A stretch of DNA of 39,708 bases from a virus (Duplodnaviria; Heunggongvirae; Uroviricota; Caudoviricetes): positions 1-39,708 of the IMG/VR virus record IMGVR_UViG_2909288124_000005. The stretch is one strand, 5' to 3'. The notes below the pieces were generated by a model, which searched no databases, was not told the DNA's origin, and saw nothing but the letters and a program-made list of their open reading frames with translations. The position numbers and the translations under genes were made by a program. Shown here piece by piece: positions 1 through 39,332 of the stretch. The stretch's first letter is position 1. The number at the start of each line of letters is the position of its first letter.

Positions 1-582
1 ATGCGGTTGCATTTGCCAGAGCTTGACGATGTTGTTTGGATGAAGGGTGTATTGATGCTAAATGTAAGGTTTGATTCAGAAAAGGCTTTAGAGGCCATTC
101 TGTACGTCGCCTCTAAAGCACCGATCCCAGATATCTATCATGTCGGAAAAATTCTTTATTATGCTGACAGGTTTCACCTTGAAAGTTTTGGACGCCTCAT
201 AACGGGCGATCACTATAACGCTATGAAGGATGGGCCTGTAGCAAGCAACACATACGATATTATAAAAATTGCTCGTGGAGATGGACGTTACATTCCTAAT
301 GGTTGTGATGTCGATTCTGTGCGAAAAGCATTTTCTGTATCAGGTATGATGATTGTGCCGAGCCGTGAAGCTGATGAAGACTTTTTTAGTGACTCAGATT
401 TAGAGTGTATTGATAAGTCTATCGCGATGCTTGGAAACATGTCCTTTGAAGCTATCAGAACCATGAGCCATGACGCGGCATGGGAACAGGCAGATCACAA
501 TGGTGAGATGTCTTTGGAATCGATAGTTGCACAGCTAAAAAATAGCAAATTAATACTGGATTATCTGAAGAACGGATATTGA
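1..582 (+). CDS. Panacea (DUF4065)-like domain protein, possible antitoxin; may extend 5' beyond window
   Basis: Stretch GKILYYADRFHLESFGRLITGDHYNAMKDGPV matches my recollection of the Panacea signature; ORF begins at window edge. Confidence 0.45.
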   Translation: MRLHLPELDDVVWMKGVLMLNVRFDSEKALEAILYVASKAPIPDIYHVGKILYYADRFHLESFGRLITGDHYNAMKDGPVASNTYDIIKIARGDGRYIPNGCDVDSVRKAFSVSGMMIVPSREADEDFFSDSDLECIDKSIAMLGNMSFEAIRTMSHDAAWEQADHNGEMSLESIVAQLKNSKLILDYLKNGY

Positions 583-1049
583 TACTTATGCTGGGTGATT
601 GTTTCCCTCCTGATTTTAAGGCTAATTTTAGTCATGAAAGAGGTATATCACCCGGTGATGTATTGTATCTTCATTGTGATTTTACGACCCCACCTAAAGT
701 AAAATATATGGTGGTTGTTTGCTGTGAACCTCTTTTAGTTCTTCTAATAAATTCAGATATAAATGAATTTATTAAGAGAAACAATGATCTTATGGCTTGT
801 CAGGTCGAAATTAATAGAGAGGACCATGATTTTCTTAAATGGGACTCATTTGTTAATTGCATTGAGGCTCATGCTGCTTTCGATCTTGAAATTATTAAAG
901 AGAAAATAGCCATCCAATATGGCGACGTGCTAAAAGGTCGCATTACAGATCATTGTATGAGACAAGTTCGATGTGCAGTTGAGATATCTAAAATCATGGT
1001 TAAACGGCATAAAAAACTGATACTCGCTGCTCTTCAACATTATGAATAA
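579..1049 (+). CDS. Hypothetical 156-aa protein coupled to the upstream Panacea-like gene (candidate toxin/effector)
   Basis: TTG at 579 overlaps upstream stop TGA 580-582; alternative ATG at 588; visibly AT-rich; no domain recognised. Confidence 0.5.
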   Translation: MILMLGDCFPPDFKANFSHERGISPGDVLYLHCDFTTPPKVKYMVVVCCEPLLVLLINSDINEFIKRNNDLMACQVEINREDHDFLKWDSFVNCIEAHAAFDLEIIKEKIAIQYGDVLKGRITDHCMRQVRCAVEISKIMVKRHKKLILAALQHYE

Positions 1050-1069
1050 ACCCACCTTTGGATGGGTTT
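1048..1069. terminator. Bidirectional hairpin terminator between convergent genes
   Basis: AAACCCA (1048-1054) pairs with TGGGTTT (1063-1069), 8-nt loop, T-rich flank. Confidence 0.4.
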
Positions 1070-1082
1070 ATTCATATTCTAT

Positions 1083-1382
1083 TTAAATGAGCCTTTGTTT
1101 ATGGGTTCTGACCCTTTCCCACTCAGCACGCCCTTCTTCTCGCCTTTTGTCTATGTATTCCGCAAGATCCTGAATATTGATGCAACGTTTTGCTTTTTGT
1201 GATGTGCCGATGCGATATGTTGGAACGGGCAACTTACAAGCGTTTGCTTTTGCTTCTGCCGTGGCTGGACTCATGCCAAAGTACTTTTGGCTAACTGCTG
1301 AGAGTTCAATGTTAGGGGTATTGAATTCAGCCATCAGTAAAAACAAGGTGTTCATAATTTTCTCCATCAAAACCGGCTGCAC
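1083..1382 (-). CDS. PrtN-like DNA-binding protein (excisionase/activator-like)
   Basis: 99 aa; MNTLFLLMAEF...PVPTYRIG pattern recalled from PrtN/AlpA-like phage regulators. Confidence 0.4.
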   Translation of the reverse strand: MQPVLMEKIMNTLFLLMAEFNTPNIELSAVSQKYFGMSPATAEAKANACKLPVPTYRIGTSQKAKRCINIQDLAEYIDKRREEGRAEWERVRTHKQRLI

Positions 1383-1391
1383 CCGGGAAAA

Positions 1392-1964
1392 TCATAATTC
1401 TGTGCTGGTGGCAGGAATTAATTTCTGCCAGATAGCGGAAACATATTTTGCCTGATGACGGGCATCGGCCAGGGCGTTGTGCCGTTCGCCATCGAAAGGC
1501 ATGTCCATTTTGGGGGCGAATCCGATGGAACGCTCAAGCGTAACGATCGTGCGTACATCGTGGTCATTCCAGTATGCCCACGGGCAGATTTGTCCTGCTC
1601 GCTCATAAGCTCCACGTAAAATTACGTTGTCGAAGGTGGCCCCGTTACCCCAGACTTTTAAATATTTTGTATTGTCTGCATGCTGATTAATGAAATGGCT
1701 CAGTTCAGAGAGTGCATCGCTGATCGACAAAGTATCATCAATACAGATTGCAGCTCGTGCTTCAGGGCTCTGTTTCAACCACCACAGGATGGTATCGCCG
1801 TCAGGTGTGGCCCCTTGCTCCATAGCACTTTCCAGGCTGACAACCGTATAGAATTCTTGTCCGATGTCTCCGGTTTCTGGGGTGAAGAACACCGCGCCAA
1901 TGGAAACGATTGGTGCATCCTTATTTTTCCCCATCGTCTCAAGGTCGATCATTAAGTTGTTCAT
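1392..1964 (-). CDS. DEDD-type 3'-5' exonuclease (DnaQ-like fold)
   Basis: N-terminal IDLETMG...IVSIGAV D-x-E motif and later H/D acidic motifs typical of DEDDh exonucleases. Confidence 0.5.
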   Translation of the reverse strand: MNNLMIDLETMGKNKDAPIVSIGAVFFTPETGDIGQEFYTVVSLESAMEQGATPDGDTILWWLKQSPEARAAICIDDTLSISDALSELSHFINQHADNTKYLKVWGNGATFDNVILRGAYERAGQICPWAYWNDHDVRTIVTLERSIGFAPKMDMPFDGERHNALADARHQAKYVSAIWQKLIPATSTEL

Positions 1965-2275
1965 TACTTCACCTCCTGCGTTTCTTTGCTGCTGTGAATT
2001 CGCCAGTTACCGACGCCTTCCCATTCAAACTGGCGGTTACTAATTCGCGTCCAGCCCCTGCCGAAAAGCAAATCCAGATACCAGTATTTTAAAGTTCTGA
2101 TAATTGCTCTTACAGTTGGTTTGCATCCAGAAGTCTTTGATGCGCAAATAAAGCACCGAGTTATGCTCATGGCCTCTACAAAAGGCCAGATAAACCAAAC
2201 CCAGATGCAAAGAGCCACGAACAACATGAGCGCAATGTTAGCCACTAAGCCAGACCAGTACAGATAATTGCTCAC
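1964..2275 (-). CDS. Hypothetical protein with N-terminal hydrophobic segment
   Basis: GTG start at 2275 preceded by AAAGGAGG; 4-nt overlap with the upstream gene stop. Confidence 0.45.
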   Translation of the reverse strand: MSNYLYWSGLVANIALMLFVALCIWVWFIWPFVEAMSITRCFICASKTSGCKPTVRAIIRTLKYWYLDLLFGRGWTRISNRQFEWEGVGNWRIHSSKETQEVK

Positions 2276-2511
2276 TGGTTGCCTCCTTTACGGATCTGCG
2301 CTGCGATGCGCGAAAAAAAAGACTCCCGCGTATGACTGTTAAGAGCTGGCGCGAACGCTGCGTTAAGAACGGCAGCATCACAGCCGTCATCGATATAGAG
2401 CGCAATTTTTTTCTCCAGGCGCGCTTTGGCTTCCTGCAACTGCATACCCCGGCACGCACGCGGGATATACTCAGCAATTTGAGCGATAGATTTTTCGTTC
2501 TGTTTAAACAT
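2272..2511 (-). CDS. Hypothetical phage protein
   Basis: ATG at 2511 with GAGGTG RBS; translationally coupled chain of small genes. Confidence 0.45.
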   Translation of the reverse strand: MFKQNEKSIAQIAEYIPRACRGMQLQEAKARLEKKIALYIDDGCDAAVLNAAFAPALNSHTRESFFSRIAAQIRKGGNQ

Positions 2512-2707
2512 GCTTCACCTCGATAGGCTTGATGCTGTCGATCAGCAGTCGGCGGCGCGTATTTTCTGCAAAGTGGCGGCGTCCGGTTTCTTTGTGGTAA
2601 AACTCGTTTTTTCCGACGACCCACATCCGCTTTGTCTGGTGCAGTTTTTTTACCTGCGGACCGTCTCGGGTGATAACAATTCCTGTATGAGTTTTTATCA
2701 CGCTCAT
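2504..2707 (-). CDS. Hypothetical phage protein (YfdT-position)
   Basis: ATG at 2707 with GGAG RBS; start overlaps upstream gene stop (ATGA). Confidence 0.4.
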   Translation of the reverse strand: MSVIKTHTGIVITRDGPQVKKLHQTKRMWVVGKNEFYHKETGRRHFAENTRRRLLIDSIKPIEVKHV

Positions 2708-3066
2708 TTCTTATTCTCCGGTGCTTTTGGCATTACTGCCCAGTGAGTGATATTGACGTTTTCAAGGTCCCCGACCTGAAATGTCCACTGCCATTCTCCG
2801 GTTTCTTTTTGTCCCCAGGTGTACCAGAGAGAACGCCAGCCAATTAGCCAGCCTTCTCCGTTAGCATCAAATAACAGAACACTTTCATTTGCTGGTGGCA
2901 GTTCAGCTGACACTGGTATTATTTTGTTTTCCAGTGCCGTACATTTAGCTTCAAGCGCATCGAATTTACGTACCAGGTACTCAGCATTTGTTTCGTTCAC
3001 TTTCAGATCTCGCGGTACACATTTCCCGCGAAGAAACCCTTCCATTTCGAAAACATTCATGCGCAT
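2704..3066 (-). CDS. DUF551-like phage protein (YfdS-like)
   Basis: 120 aa with Trp-rich C-terminus (GWLIGWRSLWYTWGQKETGEWQW); position and size match CPS-53 yfdS as I recall it. Confidence 0.45.
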   Translation of the reverse strand: MRMNVFEMEGFLRGKCVPRDLKVNETNAEYLVRKFDALEAKCTALENKIIPVSAELPPANESVLLFDANGEGWLIGWRSLWYTWGQKETGEWQWTFQVGDLENVNITHWAVMPKAPENKK

Positions 3067-34170: not shown

Positions 34171-34818
34171 ATGCATCGTATAGACACGAAAACCGCGCAG
34201 AAGGATAAGTTCGGCGCGGGTAAGAACGGTTTTACCCGTGGTAACCCCCAGACCGGCACACCTGCCACCGATCTGGATGATGACTACTTTGACATGTTGC
34301 AGGAAGAACTTTGTAGCGTGGTGGAGGCCTCCGGTGCCAGCCTGGAGAAAGGGCGGCATGACCAGCTGCTTACCGCACTTCGTGCGCTGCTGTTAAGCCG
34401 CAAGAATCCGTTTGGCGATATCAAATCGGATGGCACTGTGCAAACGGCTCTCGAAAACCTTGGTTTGGGAGAAGCGGCGAAAAGGGATGTGGGCACAGGA
34501 GATAATCAGATACCGGATATGGGAGCATTCGCTTCTGGTTCGGGATGGTTCAGGCTACCAGGTGGATATATTGTTCAGTTTGGCACTTTTTCAGGAAACA
34601 CGACCCGCTTTATCAGTGGACACTTCCCTATACCATTCCCTAATCAGCCGATGGTTTCAGTCAGTGTTATGTCTGATGCCGTTCAGTCAGATCCGTCGAA
34701 TCCTGCCCCGCAGGTTTTGTCTGTAAATTTTGAACATATCAGTAATTCAGCGTGGCGTGTGGCAACCAGTGATATCTCACAGCAATACAGATTCAGTTAT
34801 ATTTCGATAGGACGGTAG
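34171..34818 (+). CDS. Tail fibre protein; C-terminal part lies inside invertible segment
   Basis: Crossover repeat at 34461-34479 encodes LGLGEAA within the ORF. Confidence 0.7.
34461..34479. repeat. Left inversion crossover site
   Basis: TTGGTTTGGGAGAAGCGGC; exact reverse complement at 36009-36027; adjacent AAACCTTGGTTT palindromic core. Confidence 0.8.
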
Positions 34819-35650: not shown

Positions 35651-36022
35651 TTAATAACCTATTGCGAATAAACAACCGGCAGCTGAAGCACCCGCCCATG
35701 AAGTCCCATTAGTTGTTCTTAAAACTCGAACTTTGACTGTCGTTCTGGTAGAGCCACCAATATCGAAGCCCCACGTTGTGCCGGCCGATCCATTCCACGA
35801 GCTAGCAGAAGCACCTGAGTCAATCGCAGTGGCATGAAACAGAGCGTTAGGAAATGCCATAGGTAATGTCACGGTTGCTACTCCAGTCGAATCGGAAAGA
35901 AATCCAGAGACCCACTGGAAAATGATATTTTGTTCAACCCCACCAATTAAAGCCGGGATCAATATTCTCCCGGTATTACCCGTTACCCCTACAGCAGCGC
36001 CAAGTTTTGCCGCTTCTCCCAA
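35651..36022 (-). CDS. Alternative tail-fibre C-terminal segment (promoterless until inversion)
   Basis: Begins in-frame with the right crossover repeat encoding GLGEAAK, same as the fibre gene at the left site. Confidence 0.65.
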   Translation of the reverse strand: MGEAAKLGAAVGVTGNTGRILIPALIGGVEQNIIFQWVSGFLSDSTGVATVTLPMAFPNALFHATAIDSGASASSWNGSAGTTWGFDIGGSTRTTVKVRVLRTTNGTSWAGASAAGCLFAIGY

Positions 36023-36027
36023 ACCAA
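36009..36027. repeat. Right inversion crossover site
   Basis: GCCGCTTCTCCCAAACCAA, reverse complement of 34461-34479. Confidence 0.8.
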
Positions 36028-36098
36028 CCTTTCAAATATTTTTCTGAATCAGGTGATATTTCGCCTCTTCTCCTGTTTTTACAACAGGAGAAGCACTC

Positions 36099-36662
36099 AT
36101 GATTTACGGGTATGTTCGTGTATCAACAAATCATCAGGATACAGAGTTGCAACGTCTTGCACTTGAGTCAGCTGGCTGTGAGCGAATTTATGAAGAATAT
36201 GCCAGTGGCAGAACAGCTAATCGCCCTGTGTTAAAGGAATTAATTACGGTGATGAAAAGTGGAGATGAGTTGATTGTCTGGAAGTTAGATCGGATAGGGA
36301 GAAATGTGCTGCATGCGCTATTGATGTTTCAAAATCTGCACGAAAAAGGTGTTAATTTTCGGAGTATTACAGATGGCGTAGACCTGAAAACAGCAAGTGG
36401 TCGCTATAATTTCCGTAATATTCTTTCTGCTGCGCAGTATGAATCTGATTTGAATAGCGAGCGAACTTTAGCTGGTTTGGCTATTGCCAGATCCAAAGGC
36501 CGGATTGGTGGGCGTAGACCGAAGTTTAGCGACGAGCAGTGGAGACAGATGGGAGCGCTCATAGCGGCAGGGAAATCACGGCGTTATGTTGCACGTATCT
36601 ATAACGTTGGGCTATCAACCCTATATAAACGATTTCCTGTTACTGGCATTCAAACGAAATAA
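36099..36662 (+). CDS. Serine DNA invertase (Hin/Gin/Pin/Cin family)
   Basis: N-terminal YGYVRVSTNHQD with catalytic Ser context, C-terminal HTH; adjacent to invertible segment. Confidence 0.9.
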   Translation: MIYGYVRVSTNHQDTELQRLALESAGCERIYEEYASGRTANRPVLKELITVMKSGDELIVWKLDRIGRNVLHALLMFQNLHEKGVNFRSITDGVDLKTASGRYNFRNILSAAQYESDLNSERTLAGLAIARSKGRIGGRRPKFSDEQWRQMGALIAAGKSRRYVARIYNVGLSTLYKRFPVTGIQTK

Positions 36663-36798: not shown

Positions 36799-37047
36799 TT
36801 AGTGAACAAACCACTCGTCAGCAGATTCCCAGGTATCTTTCAGAGTCTCCTGAACAAAAGTTTTTGCAGAATCCTTATCTGCGGTGCGTGTAACAGAAAG
36901 GCCATCGTTGCTGGTGGCTTTTACGATCACCTCTACATCGTCATAACGTTTACTGATGCGTCGGGTTAATTCTTCCTTTAACGCATCCACAGCACCGGTT
37001 GGCATTTTAGTCATTTTTTCTTTGGCTATGCAGATTTCAATACGCAT
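36799..37047 (-). CDS. DinI-like protein
   Basis: MRIEICIAK...[11 protein letters not shown] parallels DinI as I recall it. Confidence 0.7.
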
Positions 37048-37108
37048 AAAAGTCCCTCTATACTGTGTTTGTATACAGTACTATTTTTAACTGTATAGAT
37101 AAACAGTG

Positions 37109-38206
37109 TCAAGAGGCCTTATTTCTGCTCCTTTGGAGCTCTTCAAAACGATTATGTAAAGATTTCGGATACAGTTCGGTATATACCTGCCATAGCACGT
37201 TTAATGAACGATGCCCTGTAACCTGGGCGACTTCCTCAATACTAAAACCAGCCTCAAATAAGCGACTTGCCCCTTCTCTACGCAAATCATGGTATCGTAG
37301 ATCTTTAATACCTAATTTGCTTCTTACCCTCTGGAATCCCGCAGTAACAGAAGTGCTGTTATATGGAAAAATGAATTCTGATTTTTTGGGTTGTCGTTGG
37401 ACGATATCCCAGGCTTCCCCAAGCAAGGCTACTTTCATATGGTTGCCTTCCTTTTTACGTGGATCTTTCCTGTCTCTTACGAGTATGGATTTTTGTTCCT
37501 GATCGAGATCCTCCCATCGTAATCGGCATACTTCACCGATTCGCATACATGACCACACAGAAAATTTGAGGATATCAACGAACGGAATTTTTGAGCATTT
37601 ATGTGTAGATCGTTGTTGAAGACCTTCAATGAGCATGTCCAGTTCATCAGATGCCGGTCTACGATTACGACGATTTGATTTACCAATTAAACCAAGTTTA
37701 AGTAGATATGGACGAGCGGCTTTTGCTGGGTTTGATGTGTAATTAATTCCATATACAGGTTTGGCAGCATCCAGAACACTGCCAAGATAACTAACATCGT
37801 GGCTAACTGTAGCTGGACCTGCACCAGCGTTGTTTCTTAGCCTGCAATGTTCAATTACGTCATTTTCTGTCAGTTCAGATAGTTTGATCGCGGAGATGTC
37901 ACTATCCATAAGCAGTTCCAGCACATATCTTTTAGTACGGCCTGCTTTACCTCCGGCATTTGGGTCATTTAAATATTTGTGTAGTAAGTCACGGACTGTA
38001 AGTCCGTCAACTGCATTTGATGATGGAATGCCATATAGATCTAATTCCATCACTTTCTGTGTGCCCCATGTTTTGGCATGAGCATGTTTAGGGAATGTTT
38101 TACTTTCCCTGTAAGTGATAACACCTTTTTCTTTGATAATCACATTACAGCGATAGCGTGGTGTGCCATCGGATTTTAGTCGTTTCTCTATGTTATAGTA
38201 CGCCAT
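37109..38206 (-). CDS. Tyrosine integrase, dusA-associated type
   Basis: C-terminal R...H..LRR...Y catalytic pattern (RYHDLRR...GHRSL...Y); start 89 bp from dusA start, divergent. Confidence 0.9.
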   Translation of the reverse strand: MAYYNIEKRLKSDGTPRYRCNVIIKEKGVITYRESKTFPKHAHAKTWGTQKVMELDLYGIPSSNAVDGLTVRDLLHKYLNDPNAGGKAGRTKRYVLELLMDSDISAIKLSELTENDVIEHCRLRNNAGAGPATVSHDVSYLGSVLDAAKPVYGINYTSNPAKAARPYLLKLGLIGKSNRRNRRPASDELDMLIEGLQQRSTHKCSKIPFVDILKFSVWSCMRIGEVCRLRWEDLDQEQKSILVRDRKDPRKKEGNHMKVALLGEAWDIVQRQPKKSEFIFPYNSTSVTAGFQRVRSKLGIKDLRYHDLRREGASRLFEAGFSIEEVAQVTGHRSLNVLWQVYTELYPKSLHNRFEELQRSRNKAS

Positions 38207-38294
38207 TACACGACCTCGTTATTTCGGGTTCCCATAAAACGTGGGAACCTGTGCGGGAACCTAACGCGAGAAAAATAGCCTGAAATGTTCAAAA

Positions 38295-39332
38295 ATGCAC
38301 GATAATCATGAAACACAAAAAATTAATCAAACCAGCGTGATGCCTGAAAAAACTGGTGTTTACTGGAATTCTCGGTTTAGCATTGCCCCTATGCTCGACT
38401 GGACGGACAGACATTGCCGCTATTTCTTGCGTCTGCTTTCCCGCAATACGTTGCTGTATACCGAAATGGTGACCACAGGGGCGATTATTCACGGTAAAGG
38501 TGATTATCTGGCGTACAGTGAAGAAGAACATCCGGTAGCGTTGCAACTGGGCGGTAGCGATCCGGCGGCGCTGGCGCAGTGTGCAAAGCTGGCAGAAGCG
38601 CGCGGATATGATGAGATCAACCTGAATGTCGGCTGCCCGTCTGACCGGGTGCAGAACGGCATGTTTGGTGCGTGTCTGATGGGTAATGCGCAGCTGGTTG
38701 CCGACTGCGTGAAAGCGATGCGCGATGTGGTGTCGATTCCGGTGACGGTGAAAACGCGTATTGGCATCGACGACCAGGACAGCTATGAATTTCTCTGCGA
38801 TTTCATCAATACCGTTTCCGGCAATGGCGAGTGTGAGATGTTCATCATCCACGCACGTAAAGCCTGGCTTTCGGGGTTAAGCCCGAAAGAAAACCGTGAA
38901 ATCCCGCCGCTCGATTATCCGCGTGTGTATCAACTGAAGCGTGACTTTCCGCATCTGACAATGTCGATTAACGGTGGTATCAAGTCGCTGGAAGAGGCCA
39001 AAGCACACCTGCAACATATGGATGGCGTGATGGTCGGGCGCGAGGCGTATCAGAATCCGGGTATTCTGGCGGCGGTAGACCGGGAGATCTTTGGTTCCTC
39101 GGATACCGATGCCGATCCGGTGGCGGTAGTGCGCGCCATGTATCCGTACATTGAGCGTGAACTCAGCCAGGGGACGTATCTCGGCCATATTACCCGGCAT
39201 ATGTTGGGCTTGTTCCAGGGTATTCCTGGCGCGCGGCAGTGGCGGCGTTATTTAAGTGAAAATGCCCATAAAGCGGGTGCAGACATTAATGTGCTGGAAC
39301 ACGCGCTCAAACTGGTGGCGGATAAGCGTTAA
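38295..39332 (+). CDS. dusA: tRNA-dihydrouridine synthase A; 5' end probably prophage-supplied
   Basis: Dus-family sequence throughout; followed by pspG as in E. coli. Confidence 0.9.

Follow-up and report, generated by a model that had tools for sequence, protein, structure and literature searches.

A prophage junction in the 5′ end of Escherichia coli dusA, with a phage-derived DusA N-terminus and putative integrase arm-type sites

Farrugia et al. 2015 (PMC4482086) defined the dusA-associated integrases (DAI) and the replacement of the dusA 5′ end by the elements that carry them. Their experimental elements came from Acinetobacter and Pseudomonas, unlike the E. coli prophage analysed here. 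Working with a Vibrio element, Rivard et al. 2021 (PMC8409611) reported that RdfN, a protein of the PrtN family, is the excision factor of dusA-specific elements. When the element IMEVchUSA3 integrates in E. coli K-12, dusA acquires another promoter and an N-terminus whose length is unchanged, and its expression is somewhat lower (PMC8409611). Phage 1720a-02, a Stx2d-converting phage (KF030445; Balasubramanian et al. 2019, PMC6328086), forms a prophage 100 bp into dusA with a 7-base core and supplies an in-frame phage copy of the replaced gene end (dusA′); its excision was undetectable in an int mutant (PMC6328086).

We analysed a stretch of 39,708 nt from a virus record (IMGVR_UViG_2909288124_000005, positions 1 to 39,708), referred to below as the window. 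Its int-attP module is 99.5% identical to that of 1720a-02 over window positions 37100-38399, and the AttP R primer published for 1720a-02, GGGTTCCCATAAAACGTGGG (PMC6328086), is identical to positions 38226-38245. Outside this module the two genomes differ: 1720a-02 is a lambdoid Stx phage, whereas the window prophage lacks stx and has an SfV/SfIV-like contractile tail and a predicted invertible tail-fibre segment. As in the published description of the DAI elements (PMC4482086), the window has a divergent tyrosine recombinase gene, a semi-conserved att site in the dusA 5′ end and a replaced 5′ end, with the first beta strand encoded in the replacement. As in IMEVchUSA3, a PrtN-family RDF is encoded across attP from int, but IMEVchUSA3 is an SGI1-like mobilisable island under AcaCD control and the window element is a phage. 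The features discussed below are collected in Table 1.

Table 1. Positions of the features at the int-dusA junction and of the rdfN homologue in the window.
Feature	Coordinates	Strand	Basis
rdfN homologue, PrtN family, at the other prophage end	1083-1382	−	Pfam PF11112, E 3.9e-23
int, dusA-associated tyrosine integrase, 365 aa	37109-38206	−	ORF and Pfam Phage_integrase PF00589, E 1.1e-20 (profile search)
Extended −10-like motif TATGTTATAGTA (TG 38191-92, TATAGT 38194-99), over int codons 3-6	38189-38200	+	Conservation
P-arm repeat 1, inverted copy	38226-38234	−	Sequence, repeat tests
P-arm repeat 2, TGGGAACC, direct	38242-38249	+	Sequence, repeat tests
P-arm repeat 3, CGGGAACC, direct, 12 bp past repeat 2	38254-38261	+	Sequence, repeat tests
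A-rich block GAGAAAAATAGCC...AAAAATGCACGATAAT, spanning the dusA′ start codon	38268-38306	+	Cross-lineage conservation
Phage-derived dusA′, codons 1-32 of chimeric DusA	38295-38390	+	att comparison
Core identity ATGCTCGA, crossover region	38391-38398	+	att comparison
Host-derived remainder of dusA	38399-39332	+	K-12-type comparison

The dusA ORF occupies 38295-39332 on the plus strand and encodes 345 aa (NCBIfam TIGR00742 DusA, 580 bits), with pspG downstream of it at the window end. int and dusA are divergent, and the first bases of their start codons are 89 nt apart, in agreement with the preliminary description, which leaves a spacer of 88 bp (38207-38294). A four-way comparison of att sites was then made, in which the window served as attR, the free phages mEp460 and SKA5 as attP, the empty site of a K-12-type strain as attB, and the lysogens H52 and HH107 as attL. 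Eight bp, ATGCTCGA, are common to all four sites. The window follows the phage through T38390 and the host starting from C38399, and attL is the reciprocal recombination product. A contiguous attP is present in the free phages. In the 96 nt before the core, the window differs from the attP of SKA5 at 1 position, from that of mEp460 at 8 and from the K-12-type attB at 18, and the divergence from this prophage-free allele ends at the core; past it, dusA gene positions 97-1038 differ from the K-12-type strain at 1 of 942 nt. From the four-way alignment and the contrast between 18/96 and 1/942 mismatches we conclude that residues 1-32 of DusA are phage-derived. A phage origin of the first codons, unlike the native allele, had been anticipated from the sequence alone, and the comparison now sets its extent at 32 codons, in which 9 of the 32 amino acids are changed and 4 further codons carry synonymous changes relative to the K-12-type allele. 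It is very probable that the junction near the window end is the one on the integrase side (attR as used by Rivard 2021) of a dusA prophage.

The chimeric dusA is an intact ORF of 345 codons. The motif RFS(I/V)AP, which forms the first beta strand of the Dus barrel, is retained in the phage dusA′, and the Pfam Dus domain begins at DusA residue 30. An alternative translation start at Met16 (38340) was considered and rejected for the family, as relatives such as Izhakiella (L011) have no in-frame start codon from the conserved ATGCAC to the core ATG. The A-rich block across the dusA′ start codon is kept in the P arms of relatives with different arm repeats, also at non-dusA sites; it may act as translation start context, in DNA bending or as the binding site of another protein.

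No second copy of the att core was found in the window with a 26-mer search allowing up to 3 mismatches. The preliminary description had placed it outside, and it was located there in the lysogen HH107, whose prophage left end is 99.9% identical to window positions 1-3000. In this locus (L007) the attL core lies at 2352-2359 and window position 1 corresponds to 2501, so that the native dusA 5′ fragment, with the core, stops 142 bp short of the base matching window position 1. In the favoured account, a DAI tyrosine integrase inserted the ~40-kb prophage into codon 33 of E. coli dusA, and the comparison shows that phage attP recombined with chromosomal attB inside ATGCTCGA. The DNA left of the core is phage DNA that mimics the dusA 5′ end, both in codons 1-32 and upstream of them, and the displaced native 5′ end sits at the far junction, ~142 bp before the window. 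Excision would yield an attP reading ...CCTATGCTCGATAGGATG... and an attB reading ...CCAATGCTCGACTGGACG..., and by analogy would need Int and the PrtN-like RdfN. Integration of DAI into the dusA 5′ end had been taken as established knowledge, which agrees with Farrugia et al. 2015 (PMC4482086). We add one refinement, namely that the phage must supply the dusA promoter as well as the N-terminus.

Manual inspection found no convincing −35/−10 pair for int or dusA inside the 88-bp spacer, and a scan for consensus promoters and terminators over 37900-38500 found nothing; the scan was empty because the candidate −10 that we identified has no −35 match. This candidate lies inside the int coding region and would give dusA a leader of ~88 nt, with no recognisable −35. 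Strains without the integrase also have the 12-mer pattern TATGnTATAGTA ahead of native dusA: B2 E. coli at a distance of 36 nt from the ATG, Salmonella Infantis at the equivalent position, and K-12-type strains at 83 nt. Enterobacterales relatives that adjoin dusA almost all have TAT as codon 4 of int and the rare ATA as codon 6, with C as the last base of codon 5, although their codon 2 (GCN) varies freely; these features of codons 4-6 have been lost in several relatives located away from dusA. The conserved int codons indicate a constraint at the DNA level and point most simply to a promoter reading through the P arm into dusA′. dusA would accordingly be transcribed from phage DNA, possibly from the extended −10-like TGTTATAGT over int codons 3-6. 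Part of the conservation at synonymous sites could come from selection for AT-rich codons at the gene start.

The int gene has a GAGG Shine-Dalgarno sequence (CCTC on the plus strand, 38214-38217) 7 nt ahead of its ATG. Its product shares with the DAI a tyrosine recombinase domain with the R-H-R-H tetrad and the nucleophilic Tyr: among 65 relatives, R222, H306, H332 and Y342 are invariant or at least 90% conserved, and R309 is at least 90% conserved. An AF2 model (pLDDT 87) predicts an N-terminal domain at residues 2-58, of beta-beta-beta-alpha form (pLDDT 95), followed by core-binding and catalytic domains. The fold of the model matches Tn1549 Int, lambda Int and Cre, and the full-length lambda Int structures 1z1g, 1z1b and 5j0n align across the whole of it. 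Further properties of the DAI were found at the locus. The integrase gene adjoins the dusA 5′ end and diverges from it; imperfect direct repeats of the att site, which has a 21-bp consensus in the DAI, flank the element within dusA, the 5′ end of which is replaced, with partly matching core flanks, where the attL copy of the repeat was read in near-identical lysogens, outside the window; and a PrtN-family RDF (RdfN) is encoded across attP from int. In matching lysogens rdfN lies ~1.2 kb from attL, and in identical lysogens its product is annotated as a PrtN-family protein. The depositors of the mEp460 record annotate INT_Rci and similarity to the Int of BcepIL02, and the BcepIL02 attP carries a dusA-like ...CGCGCCCATGATGGACTGGACCGAC segment.

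We fetched 80 loci from other genera, with integrase relatives at 53-99% identity. Of these, 75 extended far enough upstream to be informative, and in 55 of them dusA was divergent, with ~90-100 bp between it and the start of the integrase gene. Twenty integrase relatives, from Xenorhabdus, Serratia, Providencia, Raoultella and others, do not adjoin dusA (among them L029, L033-L035, L038-L046, L065, L066, L073 and L084). Their neighbours, judged from N-termini read by eye, resemble DEAD-box helicase, 6-phosphogluconolactonase and uracil phosphoribosyltransferase. Most of them retain the direct pair of arm repeats, mainly GGGGTGCTG, and many retain the block at the dusA′ start, ATGCACGAAAAT.

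The preliminary description had also noted repeats in the spacer at 38226-38261, and these are present as described: GGGTTCCC at 38226-38233, which contains GGGAACC on the minus strand at 38227-38233, and two plus-strand GGGAACC copies at 38243-38249 and 38255-38261. GGGAACC occurs 8 times in the whole 39.7-kb window on both strands (4.8 expected), with 3 of the copies within 35 bp, a grouping beyond chance. The three copies are identical in the attP of the free phages mEp460 and SKA5, and the P′ arm has two more, 44 and 55 bp past the core. The spacers of relatives share the layout, often with an inverted copy followed by two direct copies 11-12 bp apart, and the repeat word varies by lineage (GGGAACC, GGGGTGC, GGTGTAC, GGTGTCC, GGGATAC, GGGGCAC or GGGGTAC). 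Pairs of directly repeated 8-mers, differing at no more than 1 position and spaced 10-13 bp, were found in 48 of 56 spacers against 517 of 11,200 shuffles (4.6%), and the exact pattern of one inverted and two direct copies in 16 of 56 against 6 of 11,200. A looser metric (7-mers with at most 1 mismatch in any arrangement) did not separate real spacers from shuffles and was dropped.

For the other arm, ten attP or attL sequences were compared (mEp460, SKA5, HH107, YeP1, C5a, BcepIL02, YL2, IME1369_02, M16-3 and Kp4882-1). In the 130 bp past the core, the word of a sequence's own lineage had 2.0 copies on average, against 0.33 for the words of other lineages (n=10), and the enterobacterial P′-arm copies lie at 43/44 and 54/55 bp past the core. 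The residues of strands 2 and 3 of the Int N-domain sort by repeat word. In integrase pairs with the same word, N-domain identity is ~12 points higher than in the rest of the protein, whereas in pairs with different words it is ~10 points lower; these covariation analyses were drawn from related sequences, and the counts are not independent. Lambda Int has three domains, of which the small N-terminal one is a beta sheet plus helix, and its arm-type sites lie on both arms of attP. The window system resembles this heterobivalent arrangement in its predicted domains and in its repeats, which are distinct from the core, lie on both attP arms (three copies on P, two on P′) and are far from the core, and in both systems attP spans ~230 bp. 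The window Int shares only ~17% sequence identity with lambda Int, and the arm words are unrelated; unlike in lambda, int starts at the P arm and diverges from a mimic of a host gene, and the RDF is PrtN-like rather than Xis.

Because the word is lineage-specific, recurs on both arms and is tracked by the N-domain, we read the GGGAACC repeats, on sequence grounds, as most likely arm-type sites, ~130-165 bp from the core, and not as part of the att core itself. By analogy with lambda Int, the small N-terminal domain would read these sites to assemble the intasome. Arm-type sites are not described in the main texts of PMC4482086, PMC6328086 or PMC8409611, and literature searches, of incomplete coverage, found no paper describing arm-type sites of dusA integrases. 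A separate kind of repeat was seen in the spacers of Vibrionaceae, Shewanella and Colwellia (L060, L069, L074, L077, L081 and L087). In these, the stretch from the arm repeats to dusA′ contains another 3-4 direct repeats, such as CGTAATTCA or CGAAATTCA, which recur every 10 bp; the lineage of the window has phased A-tracts there instead. The 10-bp-period repeats may form a binding array for a second protein, or a bend.

A 601-nt junction probe was searched against 5,426 complete E. coli genomes. It matched 5,425 of them, but the match crossed the integrase in only 741; in the remaining genomes the match began slightly ahead of the dusA start, at lower identity, or not before 38382. With megablast the junction probe also matched plasmids, at 8 places in total. 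One of these is the APEC plasmid pEND_Eco 18005 (205 kb; L004, 6196-6315), in which int, the P arm and dusA′ to ...CCTATGC are joined to a truncated parB. This junction is probably an integration at a secondary site, as GGCACCGGACAG resembles the dusA core flank.

Comparison of K-12-type (L001, L007), B2-type (L002, L099) and Salmonella (L098) loci showed two dusA 5′ alleles in E. coli, which diverge exactly as far as the att core (window ~38382-38398). The K-12-type allele is present in 4,302 of 5,426 genomes (79%), with a zur-dusA interval of ~1.6 kb at 35% GC (yjbL/yjbM) between flanks of 53-55% GC. The B2-type allele is present in 1,123 of 5,426, with a zur-dusA interval of ~155 bp and a short native promoter region upstream. 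The K-12-type 5′ end resembles that of the phage, with nt identities of 82% in a stretch of 51 nt and 81% in the 96-nt dusA′, and the B2-type 5′ end resembles that of Salmonella. The DNA upstream of the K-12-type dusA is collinear with the DAI P arm, minus int and the arm repeats. No remnant of a B2-type dusA 5′ end was found near zur in K-12-type genomes, and a search of the zur-dusA interval for int remnants gave nothing significant and no leftover attL or int. On the basis of the collinearity, the GC content and the outgroup, the sequences suggest that the K-12-type dusA 5′ end and its upstream DNA are a fossil junction of an older dusA island. The yjbL/yjbM segment would then be an island remnant and the B2-type allele would be ancestral. 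The core of the B2-type attB is ATGCTTGA, with one mismatch to the phage core. In KE54, a B2-type lysogen (L099, 1310-1340), attL reads ...CCCCGATGCT/CGATAGGATG, with the phage C after ATGCT (ATGCT/C), so that one exchange point falls within the left portion of the core, as read from this single B2-type attL.

The prophage is most closely related to two isolated phages, SKA5 and vB_EcoM-720R4, with 97-98% identity across ~54-77% of each query. Lambdoid early genes are joined to the contractile tail genes, and the gene complement of the window is complete for repressor, replication, packaging, head, tail and tail-fibre functions. The copies of a 28-nt inverted repeat (34455-34482 and 36005-36032, 89% complementary) enclose two tail-fibre assembly genes in opposite orientation as well as alternative C-termini of the tail fibre, and a Gin/Cin-type serine invertase gene (36099-36662) adjoins the segment; from its sequence, this is a putative invertible host-range segment. 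The first gene after attL (window 1-582) encodes a protein with a Panacea/SocA-type antitoxin domain (PF13274, E 6.8e-20), and a 156-aa ORF that overlaps it (579-1049) has no Pfam match; together they may form a toxin-antitoxin pair or defence cargo at this end of the prophage. Related phages (SKA5, KE54) have other genes at this position. A DinI-like gene (36799-37047, minus strand) lies directly downstream of int, and the pair is kept together in mEp460, SKA5 and the H52 remnant.

Other explanations for the junction and its repeats were weighed against this evidence. That the divergent dusA 5′ end reflects ordinary allelic variation or homologous recombination, with the integrase as a chance neighbour, might be argued from the two very different native 5′ alleles of E. 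coli. But the 8-bp core marks the exact limit of the divergence, the DNA to its left matches the attP of a free phage at 95 of 96 nt, and matching lysogens have the displaced native 5′ end, with the phage P′ arm after it, at the opposite prophage end, so that we give this explanation almost no credence. It is also improbable that the prophage is a defective, fixed remnant unable to excise and the junction a fossil instead of a working att site. Decayed derivatives do exist at the dusA site, such as the 11-kb remnant in strain H52; in the window, however, the ORFs of int and rdfN are intact, no arm repeat differs from those of the free phages, the phage gene set is full, and ~54-77% of the window is matched by isolated phages at 97-98% identity.

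The repeats, in turn, might bind RdfN, or serve as an operator for divergent promoters of int and dusA′. Their location, 20-55 bp upstream of the start codon of int, is one expected of a promoter or operator, and the first two copies form an inverted repeat, a typical operator feature. Since RdfN, too, would vary by lineage along with the element, covariation of word and lineage names no protein by itself. On the other attP arm, 44-61 bp past the core, the lineage-specific word recurs as two direct copies, a placement that nevertheless fits an integrase bridging both arms better than an operator; Int N-domain identity follows the word independently of the remaining protein, and integrase relatives at non-dusA sites retain the repeat pair. 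We therefore regard RdfN sites or an operator as unlikely in place of arm-type sites. The arm-site and operator roles are compatible, since arm sites that overlap Pint could autoregulate int.

Taken jointly, the more extended reading has three parts: family-wide arm-site words of 7-9 bp that co-evolve with the Int N-domain, an int-embedded −10 promoter, on the opposite strand and matching the motif of the native dusA promoter, that keeps dusA expressed in lysogens, and a fossil K-12 allele. We put the chance that all three hold at about even. The window element shares a general strategy with other integrating elements. The element e14 inserts at the 3′ end of icd. SXT inserts at the 5′ end of prfC, as cited in PMC8409611. 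In these elements, as in the window prophage, the element carries a substitute gene end and the target gene stays intact, but their integrase families and targets are different.

The main finding itself is already known. Since the excision and junctions of 1720a-02 have been published and 741 of 5,426 genomes carry the junction, the locus is a routine instance of a described system, with a near-identical module that was characterised experimentally. Its significance is one of annotation rather than discovery: the prophage boundary is fixed to the base, the 'DusA' of this strain is a phage-host chimera, and an intact-looking dusA is no marker of an empty site. The arm-site code, the int-embedded promoter and the fossil allele, as we infer them, are modest leads beyond the published descriptions that we found. 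If confirmed, the catalogue of arm words and N-domains would be a natural specificity code for engineering or predicting dusA-targeting integrases, and would permit exact delimitation of prophages and islands. If the fossil reading is true, most E. coli, including K-12, would owe the N-terminus and the promoter of the DusA that they express to a mobile element.
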